Assembly: GCA_020635975.1 (NCBI GenBank) | Contig: JACJYT010000008.1 | Location: 2,443-66,442, forward strand | From: Chitinophagales bacterium | GTDB lineage: Bacteria; Bacteroidota; Bacteroidia; Chitinophagales; UBA8649 | DNA length: 64,000 bases | Reading direction: 5' to 3' | Shown: positions 9,886 through 47,395 of the stretch, piece by piece | How the letters are laid out: each line of letters starts with the position of its first letter | Position numbering within the stretch: the stretch's first letter is position 1 | Program-made: the position numbers and the translations under genes | Notes under the pieces: model-generated | What the model was told of the DNA's origin: nothing | The model's database searches: none | What the model saw: only the letters and a program-made list of their open reading frames with translations

Positions 9886-9897
9886 TTATTCTTTTTC

Positions 9898-10581
9898 TTA
9901 TTTCAAAAAAACTTCCCAATTATCAATAGAATAATTTGACTTTACTCTGGCTTTTTTATCTCTTTTATAATTGTACCAGCAGCTGTGATAACCAAAATTT
10001 CTAGCGCCTTTTATATCCGATTTAGGGTTATCGCCAATTACTAATACTTTAGATTTATCGCCAACAAGGATGCTTTGATGCACCTTGTCAAAGAAAGCTT
10101 TGTGTGGTTTCGAAACCCCTAATTCTTCAGATATGAAAATATGTTCAAAGTAGTTTTTCATGCCATGTTTTTCCAAACGTCGATGTTGGGCGGAACTAAG
10201 TCCATTGCTAATTATTGCGAGCTTATGACTTTCCTTTACTTGATCTAGAAACTCTTGTGCACCATTAATCCAAAAAGAGTAAGTAACCAATTCATCTAAA
10301 TACGAATTTGCCATGCTTACAGGGTCAATATCTAATTTTGCTTCTTGAATAAAGGCTTCAAAACGACCATATTTAACTTCATCTGCGGATATTTTTTGCT
10401 TTTCGTAGTAATGCCAATATTTGGCGTTTATAGGGTAATAGATTTCATAATAAGCTTCAAAATTATCTATTTCTAAAGCTTTCATCAAGGCTTTGAATGC
10501 TAAGCTAGATGCCTTGTTAAAATCGAGTAAGGTGTTATCTAGATCGAAAAGCAAGTACTCATAATTATCCAAGTTCTTCAT
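9898..10581 (-). CDS. HAD-superfamily hydrolase (YjjG-like nucleotidase subfamily)
   Basis: Track ORF 9898..10635. Start moved to ATG 10579-10581 (MKNLDNYEYLLFDLDNTLLDF). HAD motif I is DLDNTL and the late motif is VIGDNPKSDI. Confidence 0.75.
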   Translation of the reverse strand: MKNLDNYEYLLFDLDNTLLDFNKASSLAFKALMKALEIDNFEAYYEIYYPINAKYWHYYEKQKISADEVKYGRFEAFIQEAKLDIDPVSMANSYLDELVTYSFWINGAQEFLDQVKESHKLAIISNGLSSAQHRRLEKHGMKNYFEHIFISEELGVSKPHKAFFDKVHQSILVGDKSKVLVIGDNPKSDIKGARNFGYHSCWYNYKRDKKARVKSNYSIDNWEVFLK

Positions 10582-31848: not shown

Positions 31849-34800
31849 ATGAGCTACAATCCGAAGGAAATACGAAATAAATGGCAAACTTTCTGGAAAG
31901 AAAGCGAAACTTATAAGGTGAGTAATGATCTTACGAAACCTAAGTTTTATGTACTTGATATGTTTCCTTATCCATCTGGAAGCGGCTTGCACGTTGGTCA
32001 TCCGCTAGGCTATGTAGCTAGCGATATTTATTCTAGATATAAAAGATTAAAAGGATTTAATGTACTTCACCCCATGGGCTTCGATGCCTTTGGTTTACCT
32101 GCAGAGCAATATGCTATTGAAACGGGTAAGCATCCAGGAGTTACAACAGCAGAAAATATTGCCACCTATAAAAGACAATTAAACAATATTGGACTTTCCT
32201 TTGATTGGTCGAGAGAAGTAATTACTAGTGATCCTTCTTATTATAAATGGACCCAATGGATCTTTACCTTAATGTTCAATCATTGTTATTGCAAGGCGGA
32301 AGATAAGGCGATGCCTATTTCCGATTTGCTTGCTCAGTTTGAAAAAGATGGCAATACCAAAACGAGTGCTTTTACCGACTACAATAAAAAGTTTAGTGCT
32401 AGCGAATGGAAGGCTTTCGACGCAAGCGAGAAAGATCAGATACTGATGCATTACCGTTTGGCATATCGCAAGGTGTCTTTTGTTAATTGGTGCGAGGCTT
32501 TAGGCACTGTATTAGCAAATGATGAGGTGGTAAATGGTGTTTCTGAACGCGGGGGACACCCAGTAGTGCAAAAACCTTTGATGCAATGGAGTTTAAGAAT
32601 TACCGCTTATGCCGAGCGACTTTTACAAGGTATTAAAAATTTGGATTGGTCGGAAAGCTTAAAAGCCCAACAAGAAAATTGGATAGGAAGAAGTGAAGGC
32701 GCTACGGTGTTTTTTGAAGTGGCCCCCATCCCTAACCCTTCCCCCTCGGGTGAAGGGAACCTTGGAAAGTGGATAACTGCAAATCCGGGTAGTTATAAAA
32801 GATTAGAAGCTTATGCCAAGGAAATGCGCCAAAATCCTACCACCCAAGAAGCTAGACTTTGGGAAGAATTAAGAGGTGAAAAGTTGGGCGATAAATTTAG
32901 AAGGCAGCATGTCCTTGAAAATTACATTCCTGATTTTGTTTGTTTGGAAAAAAAGTTGATTGTTGAAGTTGATGGAGAAATTCATTTTTACCCTGAAAAC
33001 ATTCAAGCTGATTTGGCAAGAGCAGAAGTATTAGAAGAGTTGGGATATAAAATTTTACGTTTTAAAAATGAAGAGGTAGATAAAAATATCTCTAGAGTCT
33101 TATTGAAAATAAGTGAAGAACTTTCAAAGCGAGAATCTTCTATAGGAACGGAAAGTTCCCCCTCGCCTGAGGAGAGGGGGCTAGGGGGTGAGGCCTTAAA
33201 ATTAGAAATCTTTACCACTCGTCCAGACACTATTTTTGGAGTTACTTTTATGGTAATTGCCCCAGAGCATGCTTTGCTCAATAGTTTAGTAAGCGCTGAG
33301 CAAGAAGAAGCGGTGAAGGCCTATATTGAAGCAACTAAATCTAGGTCGAATGTAGACCGCCAGGCTAGTAAAGAAGTGAGTGGCGTATTTACAGGATCTT
33401 ATGCTATTCATCCTTTTACAGGCAAGCAAATTCCAATTTGGATTGGCGAATATGTGCTCATTGATTATGGAACAGGAGCTATTATGGCGGTTCCAAGTGA
33501 TGATGATAGAGATTACGCCTTTGCTAAACATTTTGGTATCGAAATAATTGATATTTGTGATAAAAGTGCCTATCCTAATGCCACGAAGTCGGATAAGTTA
33601 GGCAAGATGATCAACTCCGATTTTTTAAACGGAATGGAGGTGAAAGACGCCATTGCTCTAGCTATTCAAAAATTAGTAGCACAAGGAATAGGCAACTTGA
33701 AGGTAAATTACAAACTACGTGATGCAAATTTTAGTCGCCAAAGATATTGGGGAGAACCTTTTCCAATTGCTTACGATAAAGAAGGAGCAGCTATAGATTT
33801 GCCCTTAGAAGAGCTTCCTTTAGAGTTGCCACCAATGGACGACATTAAGCCTGTTAATGGTAAAGCACCTTTAAGTAAACTTACTAATTGGAGCTATAAG
33901 GGCATGCCTTTAGACACGGATACCATGCCAGGAAATGCAGGTAGTTCCTGGTATTTTCTGCGTTATATGGATCCTAATAACGACCAGGCTTTTTGTTCCA
34001 CAGAAGCAGTAAGTTATTGGCAAGATGTGGATTTGTATATTGGGGGAACAGAACATGCTGTTGGACACTTAATGTATTCTAGATTTTGGCATAAGTTTCT
34101 TTACGACCTTGGTAAAGTTCCAACGCAAGAACCGTTCAAGAAATTGATAAATCAAGGGATGATTCAAGGCGAGAGTGCTTTTGAATACAAGGTGGTAAAC
34201 GAAAATAAATTCGTTTCTTACAACTTGAAAGATGCGTATAACACCATTCCGATTCATGTGGCGATTACCTTGGTGAATGATAAAGGGGAATTGGATCTGG
34301 AAGCAGTGAAACGGTGGAGACCAGAGCAGGCAGAAGCGGAGTTTGTGCTGGAGGATGGTAAATATATCGTTGGACATGAAGTGGAGAAAATGTCGAAATC
34401 GAAACACAATGTGGTAAATCCAGACGATGTTATTGAGGAGTACGGAGCAGATTGTTTCCGCATGTTTGAAATGTTTTTAGGTCCGATAGAAAACCATAAA
34501 CCGTGGCAAACTAAGGGCATAGATGGCGTAGCTCGCTTTTTGAGAAAATTCTGGAATCTAGCGCACAATGAGGAAGGTGCTTTTATATTGACAAATGAAG
34601 AACCTACAGAAAAGGAAATGAAAATCGTGCACACTTGTATTAAAAAGGTAAACGAGGATATAGAACGTTTTTCATTTAATACCTGTGTTTCTGCTTTTAT
34701 GATATGTGTAAATGATTTGAGCGATTTGAAATGCCATAAGCAGGCGGTAATGTCGGAATTGGTGAAATTAATTTCGCCTTTTGCTCCCCATATTGCGGAA

Positions 34801-35073
34801 GAGCTTTGGCACAAAATGGGAAATACTTCTTCTGTGGTGAAGGATGTTACCTTTCCTCAGTTCGAAGAAAAGTATCTAGTAGAATCGGTAATTTCTTACC
34901 CTGTTTCTATTAATGGAAAAATGCGTGTTAAAATAGACTTAGCAGCAGGTATTTCTCAAGAGCTAGCCAAAGAGCAAGTTCTAGCCAATGAGATTGTACA
35001 AAAATGGATGGAAGGCAATGCGCCTAAAAAATTCATTTTCGTTCCAGGCAGGATTGTGAATATCGTGGTCTAA
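31849..35073 (+). CDS. leuS: leucine--tRNA ligase carrying a 158-codon in-frame insertion
   Basis: HIGH motif (LHVGHPLGY), TTRPDTIFG at the CP1 entry, and KMSKS (VEKMSKSKHN). About 150 aa longer than expected because of the cassette at 32721-33195. Confidence 0.95.
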   Translation: MSYNPKEIRNKWQTFWKESETYKVSNDLTKPKFYVLDMFPYPSGSGLHVGHPLGYVASDIYSRYKRLKGFNVLHPMGFDAFGLPAEQYAIETGKHPGVTTAENIATYKRQLNNIGLSFDWSREVITSDPSYYKWTQWIFTLMFNHCYCKAEDKAMPISDLLAQFEKDGNTKTSAFTDYNKKFSASEWKAFDASEKDQILMHYRLAYRKVSFVNWCEALGTVLANDEVVNGVSERGGHPVVQKPLMQWSLRITAYAERLLQGIKNLDWSESLKAQQENWIGRSEGATVFFEVAPIPNPSPSGEGNLGKWITANPGSYKRLEAYAKEMRQNPTTQEARLWEELRGEKLGDKFRRQHVLENYIPDFVCLEKKLIVEVDGEIHFYPENIQADLARAEVLEELGYKILRFKNEEVDKNISRVLLKISEELSKRESSIGTESSPSPEERGLGGEALKLEIFTTRPDTIFGVTFMVIAPEHALLNSLVSAEQEEAVKAYIEATKSRSNVDRQASKEVSGVFTGSYAIHPFTGKQIPIWIGEYVLIDYGTGAIMAVPSDDDRDYAFAKHFGIEIIDICDKSAYPNATKSDKLGKMINSDFLNGMEVKDAIALAIQKLVAQGIGNLKVNYKLRDANFSRQRYWGEPFPIAYDKEGAAIDLPLEELPLELPPMDDIKPVNGKAPLSKLTNWSYKGMPLDTDTMPGNAGSSWYFLRYMDPNNDQAFCSTEAVSYWQDVDLYIGGTEHAVGHLMYSRFWHKFLYDLGKVPTQEPFKKLINQGMIQGESAFEYKVVNENKFVSYNLKDAYNTIPIHVAITLVNDKGELDLEAVKRWRPEQAEAEFVLEDGKYIVGHEVEKMSKSKHNVVNPDDVIEEYGADCFRMFEMFLGPIENHKPWQTKGIDGVARFLRKFWNLAHNEEGAFILTNEEPTEKEMKIVHTCIKKVNEDIERFSFNTCVSAFMICVNDLSDLKCHKQAVMSELVKLISPFAPHIAEELWHKMGNTSSVVKDVTFPQFEEKYLVESVISYPVSINGKMRVKIDLAAGISQELAKEQVLANEIVQKWMEGNAPKKFIFVPGRIVNIVV
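32721..33195 (+). mobile_element. TIR-bounded cassette encoding a DUF559/Vsr-like endonuclease domain, inserted in-frame in leuS
   Basis: Imperfect inverted repeats of about 40 nt, GC-rich, at 32721-32760 and 33155-33195. The interior encodes AKEMRQNPTTQEARLWEELRG..KFRRQHVLENYIPDFVCLEKKLIVEVDGEIH..LEELGYKILRFKNEEV. The codon-aligned insert 32722-33195 is 474 nt (a multiple of 3) with no stops. Confidence 0.6.
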
Positions 35074-37822: not shown

Positions 37823-38212
37823 CTAAGACTTAGAATCAGTATGTTTTATAGGCTCATAAAGGGCAAAGCGATTTCCTTCTGTATCTAGAAATTGTGCCAT
37901 GTAGCCTACATGTTCTGAAATTAGTCTTCGTGGCATCAGAACTTTTCCTCCGGCTCCTTCTACTTTGTTTAAAACCGTATCTAAATTCTCTCCTCCATTT
38001 AAATAAACTAGAGGTCCTTCGGTTCCAGGTTTTAAATAATCTTCCTGTACAATTGCGCCTCCAATTGCTTCGCCTTCATGCGGGAAAAATGCGTGTTTTA
38101 CTCCTTCCATTTCAGAATAGTGCATTTTTACATCTAAAATGCATTCATAAAATTTGCGACAACGATCGAAGTCGAGGGCTGGAATTTCAAACCAAGTAAC
38201 TATGCTTTTCAT
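37823..38212 (-). CDS. VOC (glyoxalase/bleomycin-resistance) family protein
   Basis: 129 aa. WFEIPALDFDRCRKFYE and the overall size are typical of single-domain VOC proteins. Confidence 0.7.
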   Translation of the reverse strand: MKSIVTWFEIPALDFDRCRKFYECILDVKMHYSEMEGVKHAFFPHEGEAIGGAIVQEDYLKPGTEGPLVYLNGGENLDTVLNKVEGAGGKVLMPRRLISEHVGYMAQFLDTEGNRFALYEPIKHTDSKS

Positions 38213-38252
38213 CTGCTTTTGTTTAGTTTAAGTTTGAAGATAAGAAAAGTGA

Positions 38253-38404
38253 ATTAGAGAAATAGAAAAATAGAGAAATAGAGAAATAGAGAAATAGAAA
38301 AATAGAGAAATAGATGACTAGATTACTAGTCGACTAGAACAACAGTCGAACAGTCGTATGTCTAAAAATCTAAAAGTCTAAAAGTCTGGCAGTCTAAAAA
38401 TCCC
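38253..38404. repeat. 8-bp-period degenerate tandem array 1 (19 units)
   Basis: Hand-phased with no indels: attagaga aatagaaa aatagaga x3 aatagaaa aatagaga aatagatg actagatt actagtcg actagaac aacagtcg x2 tatgtcta aaaatcta aaagtcta aaagtctg gcagtcta aaaatccc. Confidence 0.9.
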
Positions 38405-38500
38405 CCCCCTCTAACTCCCCCCTTGAAAAGTGGGGAGGACGGTTTTCAATACTCACCGTCATTGCGATGAGGTGCTAGCCGAAGAAGCAATCTCATGTTA
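38401..38500. repeat. structured GC-rich element: C-run/G-run hairpin related to the leuS cassette arms, a second hairpin, and a Bacteroidota SLRGA..RRSNL-type repeat fragment
   Basis: C8 run at 38402-38409. Stem CTCCCC (38415-20)/GGGGAG (38432-37). Stem GACGGT (38438-43)/ACCGTC (38455-60). tcattgcgatgaggtgctagccgaagaagcaatctc reads SLR*GASRRSNL. Confidence 0.5.
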
Positions 38501-38525
38501 TATATGATTCACACTCTTAACAAGT

Positions 38526-38735
38526 TTAATCGTTATTTTTCTTCAATCGCATCTTTTCATTTTTGCCTTGACGCAAAAACGAAACAAAAAAGTCAAGACT
38601 GATGATTAAAAAGCTAAAAAGGAGTAAATACAACTGAAGAATCTCTAATGCTTCGCCTAGATCTTCAATACTTTCTTTGATAAGTTGAACCAACTCCCGT
38701 TGTATTAACTCCTTTTCTTAACGCTTTTTACTCAT
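38526..38735 (-). pseudogene. small tail-anchored-type ORF interrupted by an in-frame TAA at codon 6 (or a 55-codon TTG-started ORF)
   Basis: Own translation: MSKKR*EKELIQRELVQLIKESIEDLGEALEILQLYLLLFSFLIISLDFFVSFLRQGKNEKMRLKKNND*. No family recognised. Confidence 0.25.
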
Positions 38736-38768: not shown

Positions 38769-38848
38769 ATTACAGAATTAGATGACTAGTAGACTAGAAT
38801 AAATGTCGAACAGTCGACAAATCGAATCATCGAATAATCGACAAATCG
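38769..38848. repeat. 8-bp-period degenerate tandem array 2 (10 units)
   Basis: attacaga attagatg actagtag actagaat aaatgtcg aacagtcg acaaatcg aatcatcg aataatcg acaaatcg. It abuts the stop codon of the 38850..40355 gene. Confidence 0.85.
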
Positions 38849-38849
38849 A

Positions 38850-40355
38850 TCAATCCACCAACATCCTCTCCATCCCAACTCTTCTTCCTCCATCATATAC
38901 TCCTACAAAATAAACGCCTGCTGCAAACTTGCTGATATCGATAATTTGCTTGCCAGAATATTGAGGCAAGGACATAGAAAACACTTTTTCTCCTAATAGG
39001 TTATGAATCTGTAAAACCGCTTCGCTCTTGCTTTGCCATGGCAAGAAACCGTAATCTATTTCTACATAAGTACTAGCGGGGTTGGGTTGGAGTAAAATTT
39101 CTATTGGGGTGCTTAGCTCTTTTATGCCCACTCCAAGCGTATCGCAAGCACTGCCGGTTAAAGCGCCTAGGCGGTAGTTGGGGAAGTTTGGTAGACCATC
39201 TGAGCCATCTCTAGGAATAGGTATTTTTACTTCGAAATCACAAGAAACACCATATTCATTTGGATTATGAATAATGTGTATTTCGTTAATCCAACTTCCT
39301 CCTCCTACAATTATTTCTCCTGTTGGAGCCAATTGCATTGATAAAAATAAACGATCTAAAGTAGTGGCTGTGTCTCTATTATGTATTAATTGTTTAGATA
39401 AAATTATATCTTCAATATTTAAGTCATATTGAAATAATCTACCTCCTGTTGCCACATACAAAAATCGATTATTTGGTGCAATTGAGACACTGCCACTATA
39501 TTCATTAGTAAAGTTAATACCAAATTCACTCAGTGGAATCTGTCTTGGGTTACTCAACAAACCACTACAGCGATCAAAATCAAAGATTTCTACGCCATCT
39601 TTTATACTACCTCTTACAAATAAGCTACCGTCGGGACTAAAGAGACTTTGTCCGCCATCTGCATAAAAACTTTTCACACCGAGACATTGTTTATGCACCT
39701 GCATTATAGTATCTGGCGAATACAACAAGGTGTAATAACAATTACTTCCTCCCTCGCTAGCCATAATCCACCAGTCCCTTCCATTACCATGGCGGCAGGC
39801 TGCTATACCTGAAGTATTCATGGTATCTTCTATTAAAGAATTATTTTTACCTTCTATATAGTAATTATTAGTGTTTTTTGTAATCTTAGAATAAAGAAGT
39901 TCGACTCCCACCCCGTAGTCTAAATTAGGAAATACGTAACTATTTGTATCTTCTCTTAAATGAAAAAGTAGATGGCCATTATCATTCAAGGATTTTAAGA
40001 AGATAGCACCATTCCTTGAAGTATATGCACCTGCTGGGATTCCGTCAAATAGCTCCCATATGTAACCATAATTTATCGAATCGCCATTTTCGATTATATT
40101 GCCCAGATTATCATAAATGGCGGCTCCTCCAGTGAATAAAAGTAAATTTCCCGAGCTATCACTTATACTAGCATTGGTTATATGAATTCTTAGAGAAGAA
40201 TCGGGATTTAAGGTACTAAGACTATAGTCTGTTTCCGTAAAATTTATTTGATTCAGCGTTCCAGAACCTAGCAACCATGTATAATCTTCTTTTTGGCTGT
40301 AACCTAGTAGACATAAGAAGTAAGACAGAAGGTATAGAACTAGCCTTTTATTCAT
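38850..40355 (-). CDS. T9SS cargo protein, paralog A (beta-propeller-like, RHGNGRDWW motif, C-terminal sorting domain)
   Basis: Signal peptide and a C-terminal LLQPNPASTYVEIDY...AGVYFVGVYDGG T9SS type-A CTD. Mosaic paralog of 40526..42016. Confidence 0.8.
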   Translation of the reverse strand: MNKRLVLYLLSYFLCLLGYSQKEDYTWLLGSGTLNQINFTETDYSLSTLNPDSSLRIHITNASISDSSGNLLLFTGGAAIYDNLGNIIENGDSINYGYIWELFDGIPAGAYTSRNGAIFLKSLNDNGHLLFHLREDTNSYVFPNLDYGVGVELLYSKITKNTNNYYIEGKNNSLIEDTMNTSGIAACRHGNGRDWWIMASEGGSNCYYTLLYSPDTIMQVHKQCLGVKSFYADGGQSLFSPDGSLFVRGSIKDGVEIFDFDRCSGLLSNPRQIPLSEFGINFTNEYSGSVSIAPNNRFLYVATGGRLFQYDLNIEDIILSKQLIHNRDTATTLDRLFLSMQLAPTGEIIVGGGSWINEIHIIHNPNEYGVSCDFEVKIPIPRDGSDGLPNFPNYRLGALTGSACDTLGVGIKELSTPIEILLQPNPASTYVEIDYGFLPWQSKSEAVLQIHNLLGEKVFSMSLPQYSGKQIIDISKFAAGVYFVGVYDGGRRVGMERMLVD

Positions 40356-40388
40356 GAAATTAAATATAGATAATATTTTTTTGAGAGA

Positions 40389-40524
40389 AATGGATAATTA
40401 GAAAAATAGATAATTAGAAAAATAGAGAATTAGATAATTAGATGACTAGTTTACTAGTCGACTAGAACAACAGTCGAACAGTCGAATAGTCGACAAATCG
40501 AACCATCGAATCATCGACAAATCG
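40389..40524. repeat. 8-bp-period degenerate tandem array 3 (17 units)
   Basis: aatggata attagaaa aatagata attagaaa aatagaga attagata attagatg actagttt actagtcg actagaac aacagtcg x2 aatagtcg acaaatcg aaccatcg aatcatcg acaaatcg. No indels. Confidence 0.9.
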
Positions 40525-40525
40525 A

Positions 40526-42016
40526 TCAATCCACAATCAATTTTTCCATCCCAACTCTTCTTCCTCTATCATATACCCCAACAAAATAAACGCCCGCTGC
40601 AAACTTGCTGATATCGATAATTTGCTTACCAGAATATTGCGGCAAGGACATAGAAAACACTTTTTCTCCTAATAGGTTATGAATCTGTAAAACCGCTTCG
40701 CTCTTGCTTTGCCATGGGAAGAAACCATAATCTACTTCTACAAAAGTGCTTGCTGGGTTGGGTTGGAGTAAAATTTCTATTGGGGCGCTTAGCTCTGTTA
40801 TCCCCACTCCAAGCGTATCGCAGGCACTGCCCGTGAGTGCTCCAAGGCGGTAGTTGGGGAAGTTGGGGAGACCATAAGAACCAGGACGAAGAAGCGGGAC
40901 TTTCACTTCTAAATTACAAGCCACCCCAGCTTGGTCTGGTTGGTGAATAATGTGAAATTTAGATTGCTCTCCAGCACTTATAAATATCTCTCCATTTGGA
41001 GCAATTTGAGATGTTGCAAAGCCATAATTTTGAAGTGTCGCTGTATCCGAATTATGAATTAAAATTTGAGAAGCAAGAATATCCTCACTTTCTAAATCAT
41101 ATTGAAGTATTCTTGCTGAGGAAATCAAATATAAAAATCGGTTATTGGAAGAGACCGCCACCGCTCCAACTGCTAAATTAGATATGCTTAATTCTAATTC
41201 ACTTATAGGAATCTGTCTTGGGTTACTCAACAAACCACTGCAGCGATCAAAATCAAAGATTTCTACACCATCTTTTACACTGCCTCTTATAAATAAGCTA
41301 CCATCGGGACTAAAGAGGCTTTGTCCGCCATCTGTGTAAAAACTCTTCACGCCAAGACATTGTTTATGCACTTGCACTATGGTATCTGGAGAATACAACA
41401 AGGTGTAATAACAATTACTCCCTCCCTCGCTAGCCATAATCCACCAGTCCCTTCCATTACCATGGCGGCAGGCAGTTACGCCTGAATTAAGTAAAGTGTC
41501 CGATACTAAAGAAACGTTCTTTTCCGTAACGGTTAAATCATTAGTGGATACTTTAGTATATGAAATTTCACTACCTAAGCCAGAGTAGTTATTGATGTTT
41601 ACAAAAGTATCTCCTTTTAGATGTAATAATAGAAAAGAATTGTCTTCAGATAAAGATTTTATAAACATGGCTCCATTGACAGCTCTGTACGTCCCAGGGG
41701 TAACTGATGATTGTTCCCAAAAATACCCGTAGTTTATCGAATCGCCATTTTCGATTATATTTCCTAGATTATCATAAATAGCTGTACCTCCAGAGAATAA
41801 AAGTAAATTCCCAGAGCTATCACCTAAACTAGCATTGGTGATATGAATTCTTAGAGAAGAATCGGGATTTAAGGTGCTAAGACTAAAGTCTGTTTCCGTA
41901 AAATTTATTTGATTCAGCGTGCCAGAACCTAGCAACCAAGTATAATCTTCTTTTTGACTGTAACTTAGTAGACAAAAGAAGTAAGATAGGAGGTATAGAA
42001 CTAGGCTTTTATTCAT
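40526..42016 (-). CDS. T9SS cargo protein, paralog B
   Basis: Same architecture as paralog A. The N-terminal ~100 aa, the central RHGNGRDWWIMASEGGSNCYYTLLYSPDTI..block and the CTD are nearly identical, and the segments between them are divergent. Confidence 0.8.
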   Translation of the reverse strand: MNKSLVLYLLSYFFCLLSYSQKEDYTWLLGSGTLNQINFTETDFSLSTLNPDSSLRIHITNASLGDSSGNLLLFSGGTAIYDNLGNIIENGDSINYGYFWEQSSVTPGTYRAVNGAMFIKSLSEDNSFLLLHLKGDTFVNINNYSGLGSEISYTKVSTNDLTVTEKNVSLVSDTLLNSGVTACRHGNGRDWWIMASEGGSNCYYTLLYSPDTIVQVHKQCLGVKSFYTDGGQSLFSPDGSLFIRGSVKDGVEIFDFDRCSGLLSNPRQIPISELELSISNLAVGAVAVSSNNRFLYLISSARILQYDLESEDILASQILIHNSDTATLQNYGFATSQIAPNGEIFISAGEQSKFHIIHQPDQAGVACNLEVKVPLLRPGSYGLPNFPNYRLGALTGSACDTLGVGITELSAPIEILLQPNPASTFVEVDYGFFPWQSKSEAVLQIHNLLGEKVFSMSLPQYSGKQIIDISKFAAGVYFVGVYDRGRRVGMEKLIVD

Positions 42017-42049
42017 GAAATTAAATATAGATAATATTTTTTTGAGAGA

Positions 42050-42265
42050 AATGGATAATTAGAAAAATAGAAAAATAGAGAAATAGATAATTAGAGAAAT
42101 AGAAAAATAGAGAATTAGATGACTAGATTACTAGTCGACTAGAACAACAGTCGAACAGTCGAATAGTCGACAAATCGAATCATCGAATCATCGACAAATC
42201 GAACCATCGAATAGTCGAAAAATCGACAAATCGAACCATCGAACAGTCGAAAGATCGACAAATCT
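42050..42265. repeat. 8-bp-period degenerate tandem array 4 (27 units)
   Basis: aatggata attagaaa aatagaaa aatagaga aatagata attagaga aatagaaa aatagaga attagatg actagatt actagtcg actagaac aacagtcg x2 aatagtcg acaaatcg aatcatcg x2 acaaatcg aaccatcg aatagtcg aaaaatcg acaaatcg aaccatcg aacagtcg aaagatcg acaaatct. The last unit overlaps the M16 peptidase stop codon. Confidence 0.9.
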
Positions 42266-45170
42266 AGTAGGCAAAAATCTCTTCTAAACTAAATTTTTGC
42301 AGCTTGCCCATTTGTTCCAGTTGCTTGAAATCGATTTTCTCTTCATTCCCAATCACACAAATGCTATATTGCTTGCCTTTTATGTGTTTTTCGAAGAAAT
42401 GGTTGAGATCTTCTAAGCTCATCGCTTGCACTTGTTCGTAAATCTTTTGATTTACATCGTAGTCTAAGTTCAACTTTTTGGCTCTTTCATAAGCCCAGTA
42501 AATGCTAGATCCTGTTGTCCAATCACTTTCTAATTTTTTAATTACCGCTTCTTTTGCCGCATCGAATTGCATTTGGGCTTTTGGCATCTCGTTCATCAAC
42601 TCGAACATGGCCTTGCTAGCTTCTTCCAATTTATCGGCTTGGGTTCCGATATAGGCATTTACATAATGACTTTTTTCTGCTTCACTCGGACTAGAATAGT
42701 AGCTATAAGCAGAATAAGCCAAGGCTTTCTTTTCTCTAATTTCTTGAAAAACTATCGACGATAAACCAGCACCAAAATATTCATTGAATAAATTAGCTGC
42801 AGCCAATAAATTCGGATTGTACACTTCATCTTTGGCTAAGAATAAAATCTCTACTTGTTGCATGTCGTAGTTGCTATAAAGTACCTCTGCATTCTCTTTG
42901 GTAAGTTCAGGAAAAATCTTCTTGGCTGGTAATTCTTCTAAATTGCTCACCTTCAAATGGTACTTAGCAATTTTCGCCTTGGCGTCTTCCATCGGGATAC
43001 TTCCGTAATAAAAGATTCTATGCTTCACCTTCATTAAGTCTTTAATCTTTGCACTTAATTTTTCGACATCCATTTCCTGTAAACTAGCACTACTCAGTCG
43101 ATCCGTAAACGGATTTTCCATGCCGTATTTTGCAATAGAAGCCAAGCCCGTTCTTAGGATGGTATTCTTATCTAATTTTGCATTAGCTCTAGCTTTCTCA
43201 ATATCATTAACCAATTCTACATATACTTCGGAGTTGGCCTGAACCTCTGCTAGTAGGTGTTCGAAAAGTTCTAAGCCTTTCTCTAAATTTTCTTCTAAAC
43301 CACTTAAGTAAACGCTTACTTGATCGCTTCCGGCATTAACTCCAAACTCTAAGCCGTAGCGGTAAAATTCTTTGCTTAAATCTTCAGCGCTATACTTACT
43401 TGTTCCTAAATACGGCAAATACTGAATGGCTAAGGCCAATTCCTTATCGGTGTTGCTTCCTATATCTACAAGGTAGTATAAATTGAAAATCTCATTTTGT
43501 TCATTATGAACGTATGCCATCTCTACTTCATCAAGCTTATCAAAAGAAATATCTTTTTTAAAGTCAATAAACTTAGGTTCCAAGCTTAAACTTTTCATCG
43601 AATCTAGTTCTAGATAGAAGGTCGATTTACTTTCTCTGTCCACTTCTACCGCAGAAATTTGAGGCTTAGGAACGCTATGTCGATCCGAAACTCCCATCCT
43701 TTTGTATGCTATAGCATAGTTTTCTCCATAGTTTTCCTTAGCAAAAGCTACCAACTCTTCTTTTGTTATTAACGCCATAGTGTCCAAGTCAAAAATGGCT
43801 TCTTCTAAACTTAGCTCATTAATAAAGGCGTCCAAAGCAAGGTTGGCTCTACCACTATTCGATTCTAACGATTTGATTCTACTTAATTTCAAATCATTAA
43901 CTACCGCTTCCAACAGCCAATCGTCGAATTCTCCTCTTTTAATTTTTTCTACTTCCGCCAACAATAAATCTCGAACTTCTTCTAAGCTTTGTCCTTCTTT
44001 TGGTACACCATATAAGAAGTGAATAGTGTGGTCTTTTAATACTTGAGGAAAGGAGCCTGCACTTAATACTTTTTGTTTTAGCATCAAATCGATGTCTATT
44101 AATCCCGCCTGACTATTCGCTAATAGCATGTCGATTAACTGTACTTTCATCGCTTCTTTGGTCCCTACACCCGGAAATTTGTAGCCCATATAGAGCATTT
44201 CTTGCTGCGGACCAAAAATTTCTTTTACCACAGGCTGCGTTAAAGGCTTGTCTTCTGGCACAACAAGGGGCTCTAAATTTTGGCGCTCCCAACTTGAAAA
44301 GTATTTTTCAATAAGATCGATGGTGGCATCCGGATCTAGATCTCCAGCTAGGCAAATAGTCACATTATTCGGAACGTAATACTTGTTGAAATAGTCGTGG
44401 ATGTTATACATAGAAGGATTTTTCAAATGCTCTCCTAAGCCGATGGTAGTTTGGGTTCCATAAGGATGATTAGGTAGAAGGCCTTCCAACACCGCTTGAT
44501 ATACCCATCTTCCGTCGTTATCTTGCGAGCGATTAAACTCTTCATAAACGGTTTCTAATTCGGTATGAAATAAACGCAGTACTAAAGTTTGAAATCGTTC
44601 TCCCTCAATTTTTAGCCACTTTTCTATTTCGTTAGATGGAATATCGTTTACATAAACCGTTTGCTCATTGGAAGTATAAGCATTGGTTCCTTTTGCACCA
44701 AGAGCGGAAACCATTTTATCGTATTCGTTGGCAATGGCAAATTTCGAAGCTTCTAAAGAAAGGCTATCAATTTTGGCATAAATAGCAGTTTTCTTTTCTG
44801 GGTCCGTTTCTAAACGATGTTCTTCATAAGCCGCTGCAATTAAATCTAAAAGGCGCTTCTCGCTTTCCCAATCTTTAGTACCCAATACATCCGTGCCTTT
44901 AAACATCATGTGCTCCAAGTAATGCGCCAAACCGGTGGTTTCTGCGGGATCGAACTTGGAGCCTGCTTTCACACCAATTAAAGTCTGAATACGAGGCTCG
45001 GTTTTATTAACAGATAAGTAGACACTGAGTCCATTTTCTAAGGTGTATTTTAAGGTATTGCTATCATCTCCTTCAACAACTTCAAAGTCGTGTTGGTAAA
45101 GTTTCTCTACTTTTTGCTTGCACGAGAAGAGTAGGGGAATTAGGAATAGGAAAATACTTATTTTTCTCAT
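42264..45170 (-). CDS. M16 (insulinase/pitrilysin) family zinc peptidase lipoprotein
   Basis: Lipobox LLFSC and HxxEH zinc motif (GLAHYLEHMMFKGT). 968 aa, consistent with a two-M16-unit architecture. Confidence 0.85.
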   Translation of the reverse strand: MRKISIFLFLIPLLFSCKQKVEKLYQHDFEVVEGDDSNTLKYTLENGLSVYLSVNKTEPRIQTLIGVKAGSKFDPAETTGLAHYLEHMMFKGTDVLGTKDWESEKRLLDLIAAAYEEHRLETDPEKKTAIYAKIDSLSLEASKFAIANEYDKMVSALGAKGTNAYTSNEQTVYVNDIPSNEIEKWLKIEGERFQTLVLRLFHTELETVYEEFNRSQDNDGRWVYQAVLEGLLPNHPYGTQTTIGLGEHLKNPSMYNIHDYFNKYYVPNNVTICLAGDLDPDATIDLIEKYFSSWERQNLEPLVVPEDKPLTQPVVKEIFGPQQEMLYMGYKFPGVGTKEAMKVQLIDMLLANSQAGLIDIDLMLKQKVLSAGSFPQVLKDHTIHFLYGVPKEGQSLEEVRDLLLAEVEKIKRGEFDDWLLEAVVNDLKLSRIKSLESNSGRANLALDAFINELSLEEAIFDLDTMALITKEELVAFAKENYGENYAIAYKRMGVSDRHSVPKPQISAVEVDRESKSTFYLELDSMKSLSLEPKFIDFKKDISFDKLDEVEMAYVHNEQNEIFNLYYLVDIGSNTDKELALAIQYLPYLGTSKYSAEDLSKEFYRYGLEFGVNAGSDQVSVYLSGLEENLEKGLELFEHLLAEVQANSEVYVELVNDIEKARANAKLDKNTILRTGLASIAKYGMENPFTDRLSSASLQEMDVEKLSAKIKDLMKVKHRIFYYGSIPMEDAKAKIAKYHLKVSNLEELPAKKIFPELTKENAEVLYSNYDMQQVEILFLAKDEVYNPNLLAAANLFNEYFGAGLSSIVFQEIREKKALAYSAYSYYSSPSEAEKSHYVNAYIGTQADKLEEASKAMFELMNEMPKAQMQFDAAKEAVIKKLESDWTTGSSIYWAYERAKKLNLDYDVNQKIYEQVQAMSLEDLNHFFEKHIKGKQYSICVIGNEEKIDFKQLEQMGKLQKFSLEEIFAY

Positions 45171-47038: not shown

Positions 47039-47395
47039 ATGCTTACCTTAGTTATTGGTGCTAGCGAGCACCCCGAACGCTATTCGAATAAGGCGATCTT
47101 AATGTTGCAAAAGTTTGGACATGAAGTTCTTGCCCTTGCTTCTAGAAAGGGGAGCATTGGAAATCTTGAGTTTTATACTGAAAAGCCAGACTTTAAACAG
47201 GTCGATACGGTTACTCTTTATATAAATCCACGTATTCAAAAAGAATATTACGACTATATTCTTCGTTTACATCCGCGAAGAGTTATTTTTAATCCGGGCA
47301 CGGAAAACCCCGAGTTTTATACCTTGCTAAAAGAAAAAGGAATTGAAGTGCAAGAAGCCTGCACTTTGGTTTTACTTAGCACGAAGCAATTTTAA
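47039..47395 (+). CDS. CoA-binding domain protein
   Basis: 118 aa. LVIGASEHPERYSNKAILMLQKFGHEV is typical of the small CoA-binding (PF13380-like) family. Confidence 0.7.
   Translation: MLTLVIGASEHPERYSNKAILMLQKFGHEVLALASRKGSIGNLEFYTEKPDFKQVDTVTLYINPRIQKEYYDYILRLHPRRVIFNPGTENPEFYTLLKEKGIEVQEACTLVLLSTKQF

Follow-up and report, generated by a model that had tools for sequence, protein, structure and literature searches.

Why would a stretch of intergenic DNA keep an exact 8-bp period while the sequence of its units drifts? The question is raised by a locus in a 64-kb stretch of contig JACJYT010000008.1 from a Chitinophagales bacterium (hereafter the window), in the gap between the gene of an M16 family peptidase and that of a T9SS cargo protein. 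A reading made from the sequence alone had noted 27 consecutive 8-mers filling this gap, and had proposed either selection on spacing or very active slippage as the reason for the locked period. On balance we favor the view that this array, here named A3, is a compound octanucleotide long-SSR (minisatellite), grown by slippage and copied locally together with the cargo gene, with no demonstrated sequence-specific function.

The count and the filled gap both hold. Tandem Repeats Finder (TRF) returns period-8 arrays at 42045-42264, along with higher-order periods of 16, 24 and 32 bp; in a sliding scan, lag-8 identity has its peak over A3, at 0.79, where the background of the window is 0.27 ± 0.06; and the unit listing gives 27 head-to-tail 8-mers with no phase break, indel or spacer. 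The coding strand is the minus strand, on which A3 starts at the TAG stop codon of the M16 gene (42264-42266) and ends with its last recognisable unit, CCATTTCT, at 42047, leaving 30 nt to the ATG at 42016. In the register first chosen for the array (42050-42265), position 1 is indeed A in 27/27 units and position 4 is A in 21/27. In all six frames the region is interrupted by stop codons, and the array is non-coding, as had been argued.

Within A3, a 5' arm, a core and a 3' arm can be distinguished (Table 1). The 5' arm is built of higher-order blocks of 32 and 24 bp and could, as RNA or single-stranded DNA, fold on itself through its TCGA palindromes (RNA fold z = -3.96 relative to shuffles); TCGA is carried by only half of A3. 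The core, which reads CTGTTGTT CTAGTCGA CTAGTAAT CTAGTCAT when divided into 8-mers, contains a perfect 12-bp palindrome, CTAGTCGACTAG, at 42131-42142, and the hairpin GACTAG-TAAT-CTAGTC at 42121-42136, with a 6-bp stem, 3 G-C pairs and a folding energy of about -10 kcal/mol. The 3' arm is G-free on the coding strand, with T at 0.61 and C at 0.20 in the 76 nt sampled (42045-42120). The unit families succeed one another in a single register and change stepwise by few substitutions, through CTGTTCGA, CTGTTGTT, CTAGTCGA, CTAGTAAT, CTAGTCAT, CTAATTCT and CTATTTTT; the three families share one register because each derives from its neighbor by few substitutions. Neighboring units differ on average by 2.2 mismatches and units 16-20 apart by 5.5; the rise with distance is broken by a dip at 4 units that marks the 32-bp higher-order repeat.

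Table 1. Coordinates in the window of the arrays, their parts, the genes around them and the candidate promoter box.
Feature	Position	Strand	Description	Basis
A3	42047..42262	-	27 in-phase units, from M16 stop codon to cargo-1 promoter (probable)	TRF, lag-8 identity, unit listing
A3 5' arm	42151..42262	-	14 units of type NNNNTCGA (e.g. TTTGTCGA, TGGTTCGA, CTATTCGA)	TRF, unit listing
A3 core	42116..42142	-	27 nt, CTAGTCGACTAGTAATCTAGTCATCTA	3 copies in window, 0 expected by chance
A3 3' arm	42047..42118	-	9 units of type CTAWTTYT	composition, unit listing
A2	40386..40529	-	18 units; order 5' arm, core, 3' arm; starts on TGA stop of cargo gene 1	
A1a	38774..38853	-	short degenerate copy, 10 in-phase units, after cargo gene 2 stop codon	
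A1b	38250..38401	-	19 units, upstream of unrelated glyoxalase-fold gene	
M16 family peptidase gene	42264..45170	-	968 aa; 10 nt downstream of dnaX; TAG stop begins A3	
T9SS cargo paralogue 1	40526..42016	-	496 aa; Por_Secre_tail (T9SS C-terminal sorting domain)	
T9SS cargo paralogue 2	38850..40355	-	501 aa; mosaic identity to paralogue 1	
Glyoxalase/bleomycin-resistance-fold gene	37823..38212	-	129 aa, downstream of A1b	
Candidate Bacteroidota -7 box TATATTTA	42022..42029	-	5 nt before cargo gene 1 ATG, leaderless-type geometry	

A3 is not alone. Lag-8 identity reaches at least 0.65 at only four places in the 64 kb, all of them within 4 kb (38.2-42.3 kb), and the remaining 60 kb of the window hold no further array copy. 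The three copies besides A3, namely A2, A1a and A1b, had been overlooked in the sequence-only reading. All four lie between minus-strand genes in one orientation relative to transcription, and three start at a stop codon. On the coding strand the copies follow one plan, (NNNNTCGA)n, core, (CTAWTTYT)n, the exceptions being the 5' arm of A1b, which is made of ACTTTTAG units, and the degenerate core of A1a, which consists of CTAGTCTA CTAGTCAT only. The tail of A1a (to about 38734) also shows a 1-nt phase slip. A3 and A1b have the same 27-nt core, from which that of A2 departs by one mismatch; with its adjoining units included, the A1b core is nearly identical to A3 over about 75 nt.

On the minus strand the locus runs in the order dnaX, M16, A3, cargo gene 1, A2, cargo gene 2, A1a, 310 bp of unique sequence, A1b and the glyoxalase-fold gene, and domain matches bear out the earlier assignment of the genes flanking A3 to an M16 peptidase and a T9SS cargo protein. 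The genome is compact, and the arrays make up three of the five largest intergenic gaps in the 64-kb window. Some other features of the window deserve mention: (i) The unique sequence between A1a and A1b (38425-38735) holds a hairpin at 38617-38716 with a 23-bp stem (z = -3.5) followed by a T-rich run, as well as a G-rich hairpin, CCTCCCCACTTTTCAAGGGGGGAG, and a stretch, cttcggctagcacctcatcgcaatgacggtgag, which resembles small repeat elements of other Bacteroidota; this segment may contain a cargo-gene terminator or a small RNA. (ii) The largest intergenic gap (679 bp, 9886-10564) is without an ORF of at least 80 aa, an Rfam match or a repeat. (iii) The leucyl-tRNA synthetase (31849-35073, 1074 aa) has a DUF559 / Vsr-like endonuclease domain inserted at residues 318-425, between its catalytic N-terminal part and its editing domain.

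The clustering of the copies bears on what kind of element they are. Two exclusions made at the outset stand: A3 is not a CRISPR, in which repeats of 21-48 bp alternate with unique spacers of like length and cas genes are usually close by, as its 8-mers are contiguous without spacers and no cas domains occur among the scanned neighbors, and it is not a REP element, having only a short core palindrome and no terminal inverted repeats, with copies that are clustered and not dispersed. A MITE-like mobile or non-autonomous element inserted four times could place about 75 nt of nearly identical sequence upstream of an unrelated gene (A1b) and also of the cargo genes. There are, however, neither terminal inverted repeats nor target-site duplications; moreover the copies are confined to 4 kb in one orientation, with none in the other 60 kb of the window, and neither 185,579 reference genomes nor the metagenome collection contain an exact copy of the 27-nt core. 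We consider insertion of this kind extremely unlikely.

Comparison among the copies instead documents change by whole units. When A3 plus cargo gene 1 is aligned with A2 plus cargo gene 2, the result is a mosaic of segments at 92-98% and at 50-60% identity. In the cargo paralogues themselves (38850-42016), DNA identity is 92-98% in the 5' 300 nt, a middle 240 nt and the 3' 360 nt and 50-60% in between, a pattern that points to segmental gene conversion or cassette exchange and not to simple divergence. Apart from whole-unit indels, the homologous parts of A3 and A2 are 97% identical, which equals the adjoining 5' coding gene-conversion tract; the array is therefore not specially conserved. The indels are of two kinds: in the 3' arm a gap spans 16 nt (two units), and at its 5' end A3 has about 8 units more than A2. 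Both the number and the sequence of units vary among the paralogous copies A3, A2 and A1b.

Whole-unit indels, the decay of similarity with distance, the dip at four units and the loss of phase in A1a are signatures of slippage or unequal exchange. We infer slippage as the process, and current change in unit number from the paralogous copies only. Of the two explanations first offered for the locked period, slippage is thus the one that gains from these comparisons, and selection on spacing is unnecessary, since growth in whole units is enough to preserve the period. Whole 8-bp units, and blocks of 24 or 32 bp, would be gained and lost through replication slippage or unequal exchange; point mutations would spread locally among the units, and the constant period and the stepwise drift would both be by-products. 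The composite of TCGA arm, CTAG core and CTATTT arm would have been duplicated locally with the T9SS cargo gene to give four copies in 4 kb. A2 combines the 5' end of the post-cargo array with the 3' end of the pre-cargo array, a hybrid structure that is expected from a tandem duplication with its end points in the arrays. The array fills the gap from the stop codon of the dnaX-M16 operon to a probable -33/-7 promoter of the next gene. Two incidental effects seem likely: the DNA upstream of the promoter would be AT-rich and G-poor, and the end of the upstream transcript would carry a weak hairpin followed by a U-rich tract; and direct repeats of 80-216 bp flanking a cargo gene would provide homology that favors its tandem duplication, deletion and gene conversion.

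Some observations sit less easily with slippage. The core is identical in two copies despite their differing arms and downstream genes, which could mean constraint and not recency; the 76 nt sampled of the 3' arm contain no G, and this arm adjoins the probable promoter, which is compatible with a selected role; and all four copies share their orientation relative to transcription. The arrays might be functional cassette boundaries, in which direct repeats flanking each cargo gene, with their conserved palindromic cores, promote programmed unequal exchange and segmental gene conversion, or they might be a general Bacteroidota operon-end element placed after stop codons; we give such a role a small chance. 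Were the arrays cassette boundaries, they would produce copy-number and mosaic variation of secreted or surface proteins, like the repeat-flanked cassettes of antigenic-variation loci.

A scan for sigma-70 promoters was uninformative, with fewer matches than in shuffles, and the Bacteroidota -7 motif was used instead. This motif, TAnnTTT[GA], occurs at most 60 nt upstream of 16 of the 29 genes, versus 5.6 ± 2.2 in shuffles. For the genes starting at 47039, 59974, 42016, 40355 and 46899 it lies only 12-16 nt before the ATG, and its position suggests that leaderless or very short-leader mRNAs may be common in this organism. At both cargo genes TATATTTA starts 13 nt before the ATG (the identical box before cargo gene 2 is at 40361-40368), and at both a TTTC lies 18 nt upstream of this -7-like box in the last array unit; in A3 this candidate -33 element (42048-42051) is inside CCATTTCT. 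The cargo genes probably have, on these signals, a -33/-7 promoter with little or no leader. The glyoxalase-fold gene after A1b has no recognisable -7 box. With a promoter right before the ATG, most of A3 would lie upstream of that promoter, in the 3' end of the dnaX-M16 transcript, or both, and not in a 5' UTR. The earlier suggestion of an unstructured pyrimidine-rich UTR thus probably has the geometry wrong, most of the array lying upstream of the candidate promoter.

This geometry leaves room for a promoter tuner, in which the T-rich 3' arm, just upstream of the -33 element, would work like an UP element or as a spacer, and expression of the T9SS cargo would change as 8-bp units are added or removed. 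Secreted and surface proteins are the typical targets of phase variation, as in contingency loci; the candidate -33 TTTC falls in the last array unit, 18 nt upstream of TATATTTA; and the two cargo-gene copies do differ by whole units. The repeats, however, lie outside both the -33/-7 interval and the ORFs, so that unit changes leave core spacing and reading frame unaffected, and the same array precedes an unrelated glyoxalase-fold gene of cytoplasmic type that is without a recognisable -7 box. As described below, similar arrays elsewhere have no gene-class association, and cargo homologues of other genomes have no adjacent array. Tuning of this sort appears quite unlikely.

At its other end, the array might serve the upstream transcript. 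It begins exactly at a stop codon in three copies, and could be the 3' UTR of dnaX-M16, in which the TCGA arm, hairpin and U/C-rich arm terminate the transcript (intrinsically or in a manner like Rho utilisation), insulate it from the next gene or stabilise it. As RNA, A3 folds more stably than shuffled sequence (z = -3.96), and the core hairpin (about -10 kcal/mol) is found in three copies, followed by a U-rich but interrupted stretch; the G fraction of zero and C of 0.20 in the 3' arm fit as well. The gap between M16 and cargo gene 1 has no other terminator-like site, the A1b core is flagged as terminator-like, and for STRR repeats an influence on transcript stability has been proposed (PMC2670836). 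Yet the stem contains no more than 3 G-C pairs and is not directly followed by an unbroken run of U, terminator-like matches in the region are not in excess (4 versus 5.0 in shuffles), and A1b lies downstream of other hairpins, where termination seems unneeded. Strand polarity is opposite elsewhere (24 versus 7, see below), which argues that there is no common RNA-level logic. Nor is there an Rfam match to lend support: a known RNA family was rejected, the sole weak match in the array having E = 0.22, far below the gathering score, and the only above-threshold match in the window being a tRNA elsewhere. Overall we regard a role at the RNA 3' end as unlikely.

Strict 8-bp spacing of TCGA or CTAG, together with the perfect 12-bp palindrome of the core, also brings to mind a binding platform, on which a dimeric protein (e.g. 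ribbon-helix-helix) would polymerise along half-palindromes 8 bp apart. Contiguous operator arrays of 7-8-bp units have precedents: MetJ binds tandem 8-bp metboxes, with 2-5 boxes matching AGACGTCT upstream of methionine genes, and omega binds 7-bp heptads. Operators of the MetJ/omega kind have 2-10 units, a conserved consensus and a cognate repressor gene, and their 7-8-bp spacing serves cooperative binding. A3 is like them in its contiguous, (half-)palindromic units and its period, but it differs in having 27 drifting units, no metbox consensus and no regulator gene among the neighbors scanned. A MetJ-type operator as such was rejected, as no box fits AGACGTCT with fewer than 2 mismatches and only 2 reach that level, and the neighboring genes are unrelated to methionine metabolism. 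TCGA is missing from half of the array, the number of units depends on the copy, and nothing is conserved in relatives. Neither are TCGA and CTAG unusual in the rest of the window, with observed/expected ratios of 0.87 and 0.90 outside the arrays; the same normal frequencies led us to reject a restriction or methylation decoy. The chance of a binding platform seems to us a slim one.

Three proteins of the window have no exact match in the collections searched. The nearest M16 homologues are a partial match at 75% identity in a Flavobacteriaceae MAG and proteins at 70-72% aa identity on metagenome contigs, two of them TARA ocean contigs; downstream of M16, the relatives at 70-72% have neither the array nor the cargo genes. 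About 150-200 nt past the M16 stop, the closest full-length relatives (L492 and L493, 72% aa identity) contain five units in 8-bp phase, CTTTCAA CTATTCAA CTTATCGA CTATTCAA TAATCGA. This stretch resembles the CTATTCGA units of the window and could be what is left of the array, its seed, or a chance match.

Arrays of the same general kind are nevertheless widespread. In 1.54 Mb of unselected Bacteroidota loci there are ten 7-bp arrays and one 8-bp array and none of period 5, 10 or 11, and 0.78 Mb of metagenome loci contain seven 7-bp and five 8-bp arrays. Across 1.68 Mb of Bacteroidota DNA from elsewhere, drifting 7- or 8-bp arrays have a density of about 9.5 clusters per Mb, mostly in intergenic positions. 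A tally over L001-L080, L201-L280 and L492-L571 (2.3 Mb) gives 17 7-bp, 6 8-bp and two 11-bp arrays and none of 5 or 10 bp. Among short non-triplet periods, 7-8 bp seems to be the preferred unit size in Bacteroidota intergenic DNA. Five TCGA at 8-bp spacing were found in at least 120 stretches from very diverse phyla, with several loci in some genomes, and many of the matches listed have drifting or compound units. Among the matches listed, 79 of 123 arrays are intergenic by a crude ORF call, and 23 of the 57 with a called gene on both sides come within 60 nt of each neighbor. Viral contigs contain TCGA-phased arrays at 7 bp (108), 8 bp (57) and 10 bp (46); these counts, and the predominance of 7-bp over 8-bp arrays in unbiased Bacteroidota DNA, indicate that period 8 is not privileged.

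Some individual arrays deserve mention: (i) Unrelated 7- or 8-bp arrays at L513:7948-8029, L560:4482-4561 and L569:5470-5540 extend from the stop of an M16 orthologue to a downstream gene, a different one in each case, and fill the whole gap. (ii) On a metagenome contig, right after an M16 homologue of 46% identity, a compound array of about 400 bp (L548:3785-4189) alternates purine-rich 7-bp units (TAGGAAG type) with pyrimidine-rich 8-bp units (GATCTACT and TTTACCGA types), making it more elaborate than A3. (iii) Two low-GC genomes have compound 8-bp arrays, one at L179:6629-6853 passing from TCGATTGC to ATTAGCAC, the other at L198:4809-5090 with TCGAATAA and then ATGCAACC/ATTCAACC.

The functional proposals that came with the first description were to be judged by association of such arrays with particular genes, and this test weakens them. 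The genes downstream of 49 similar arrays represent 73 different Pfam families with no recurrent class, and cargo homologues occur without arrays: 80 cargo-homologue loci yielded a single 8-bp array, which is not adjacent to the cargo gene, and an association with T9SS cargo was rejected. So was one with M16, as only 4 of 150 orthologue loci have a 7- or 8-bp array at the M16 stop, each unrelated to A3 (P about 0.13 versus random intergenic placement). A common transcription-strand rule fares no better, the purine-rich strand being the coding one in 24 cases versus 7 in other genomes, opposite to the window.

In the loci sampled, then, the intergenic DNA of Bacteroidota regularly includes drifting 7-8-bp arrays, which often start at a stop codon, and our literature search returned no report of 7-8-bp arrays in this phylum. 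Whole-unit slippage produces a strict period together with a drifting sequence, so that their combination is no evidence of spacing selection. Should the class turn out to be functional, in termination, insulation or promoter tuning, this locus would make a handy test case, with four paralogous copies of differing unit counts and two near-identical candidate promoters. Such arrays are also direct repeats, able to drive duplication or deletion of the genes they flank, and can confuse short-read assembly.

We place A3, preferably as a slippage-grown array, among known repeats as a further case of the poorly understood long-SSR/STRR-like class, taken here as head-to-tail units of 5-11 bp in many copies without spacers. 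It has many spacerless units, is intergenic between co-oriented genes, lies near a stop codon and varies among paralogous copies, which are the testable traits of that class. Like contingency loci, A3 is a slippage-prone repeat near genes of surface or secreted proteins. Those of Neisseria and Haemophilus, in the works as cited in PMC4692102, have units of 1-5 nt (7 in a few) inside ORFs or between promoter hexamers. By placement A3 was rejected as a contingency locus, being non-coding in six frames and upstream of the candidate -33 element.

STRR, first reported in Calothrix, are like A3 short-period, hairpin-capable and placed in intergenic gaps. They are heptanucleotides of cyanobacteria, found in intergenic or intercistronic gaps such as hupS-hupL, and their function is unknown (PMC2670836). 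A3 departs from their 7-bp period, few families and genome-wide dispersal with an 8-bp period, a Bacteroidota host and locally clustered copies. With STRR and GGGAATC repeats, one unit family occupies many genome loci; in the 64 kb of the window, the copies of the array are confined to 38.2-42.3 kb.

Rehm et al. 2015 (PMC4692102) describe repeats that are closer in anatomy, the heptameric SSRs (GGGAATC / GGGGAYT) between genes of Xanthomonas and Nostoc; the 'long SSR' class that they cite from Mrazek et al. 2007 is close as well. Of the heptameric SSRs, 89-93% are intergenic, most of them flanked by co-oriented ORFs, and their mean distance from the upstream ORF is 28 nt; close species differ in the length of these repeats, which have no known function and for whose origin slippage tied to the polymerase footprint has been suggested (PMC4692102). 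A3 matches them in having units longer than 6 bp, many copies, variants within the array, an intergenic position and proximity to the upstream stop codon, and differs in its period of 8, in its AT-rich TCGA/CTAG/CTA units, which are unable to form G-quadruplexes, and in carrying three unit families in register. The 'constant repeat size, variable sequence' repeats of Bacillus and other bacteria, with units of 52 or 20-21 nt and several families per genome (Subirana & Messeguer 2021, PMC8161180), present the same paradox of a period kept while the sequence varies, and A3 presents it at a unit of 8 bp.
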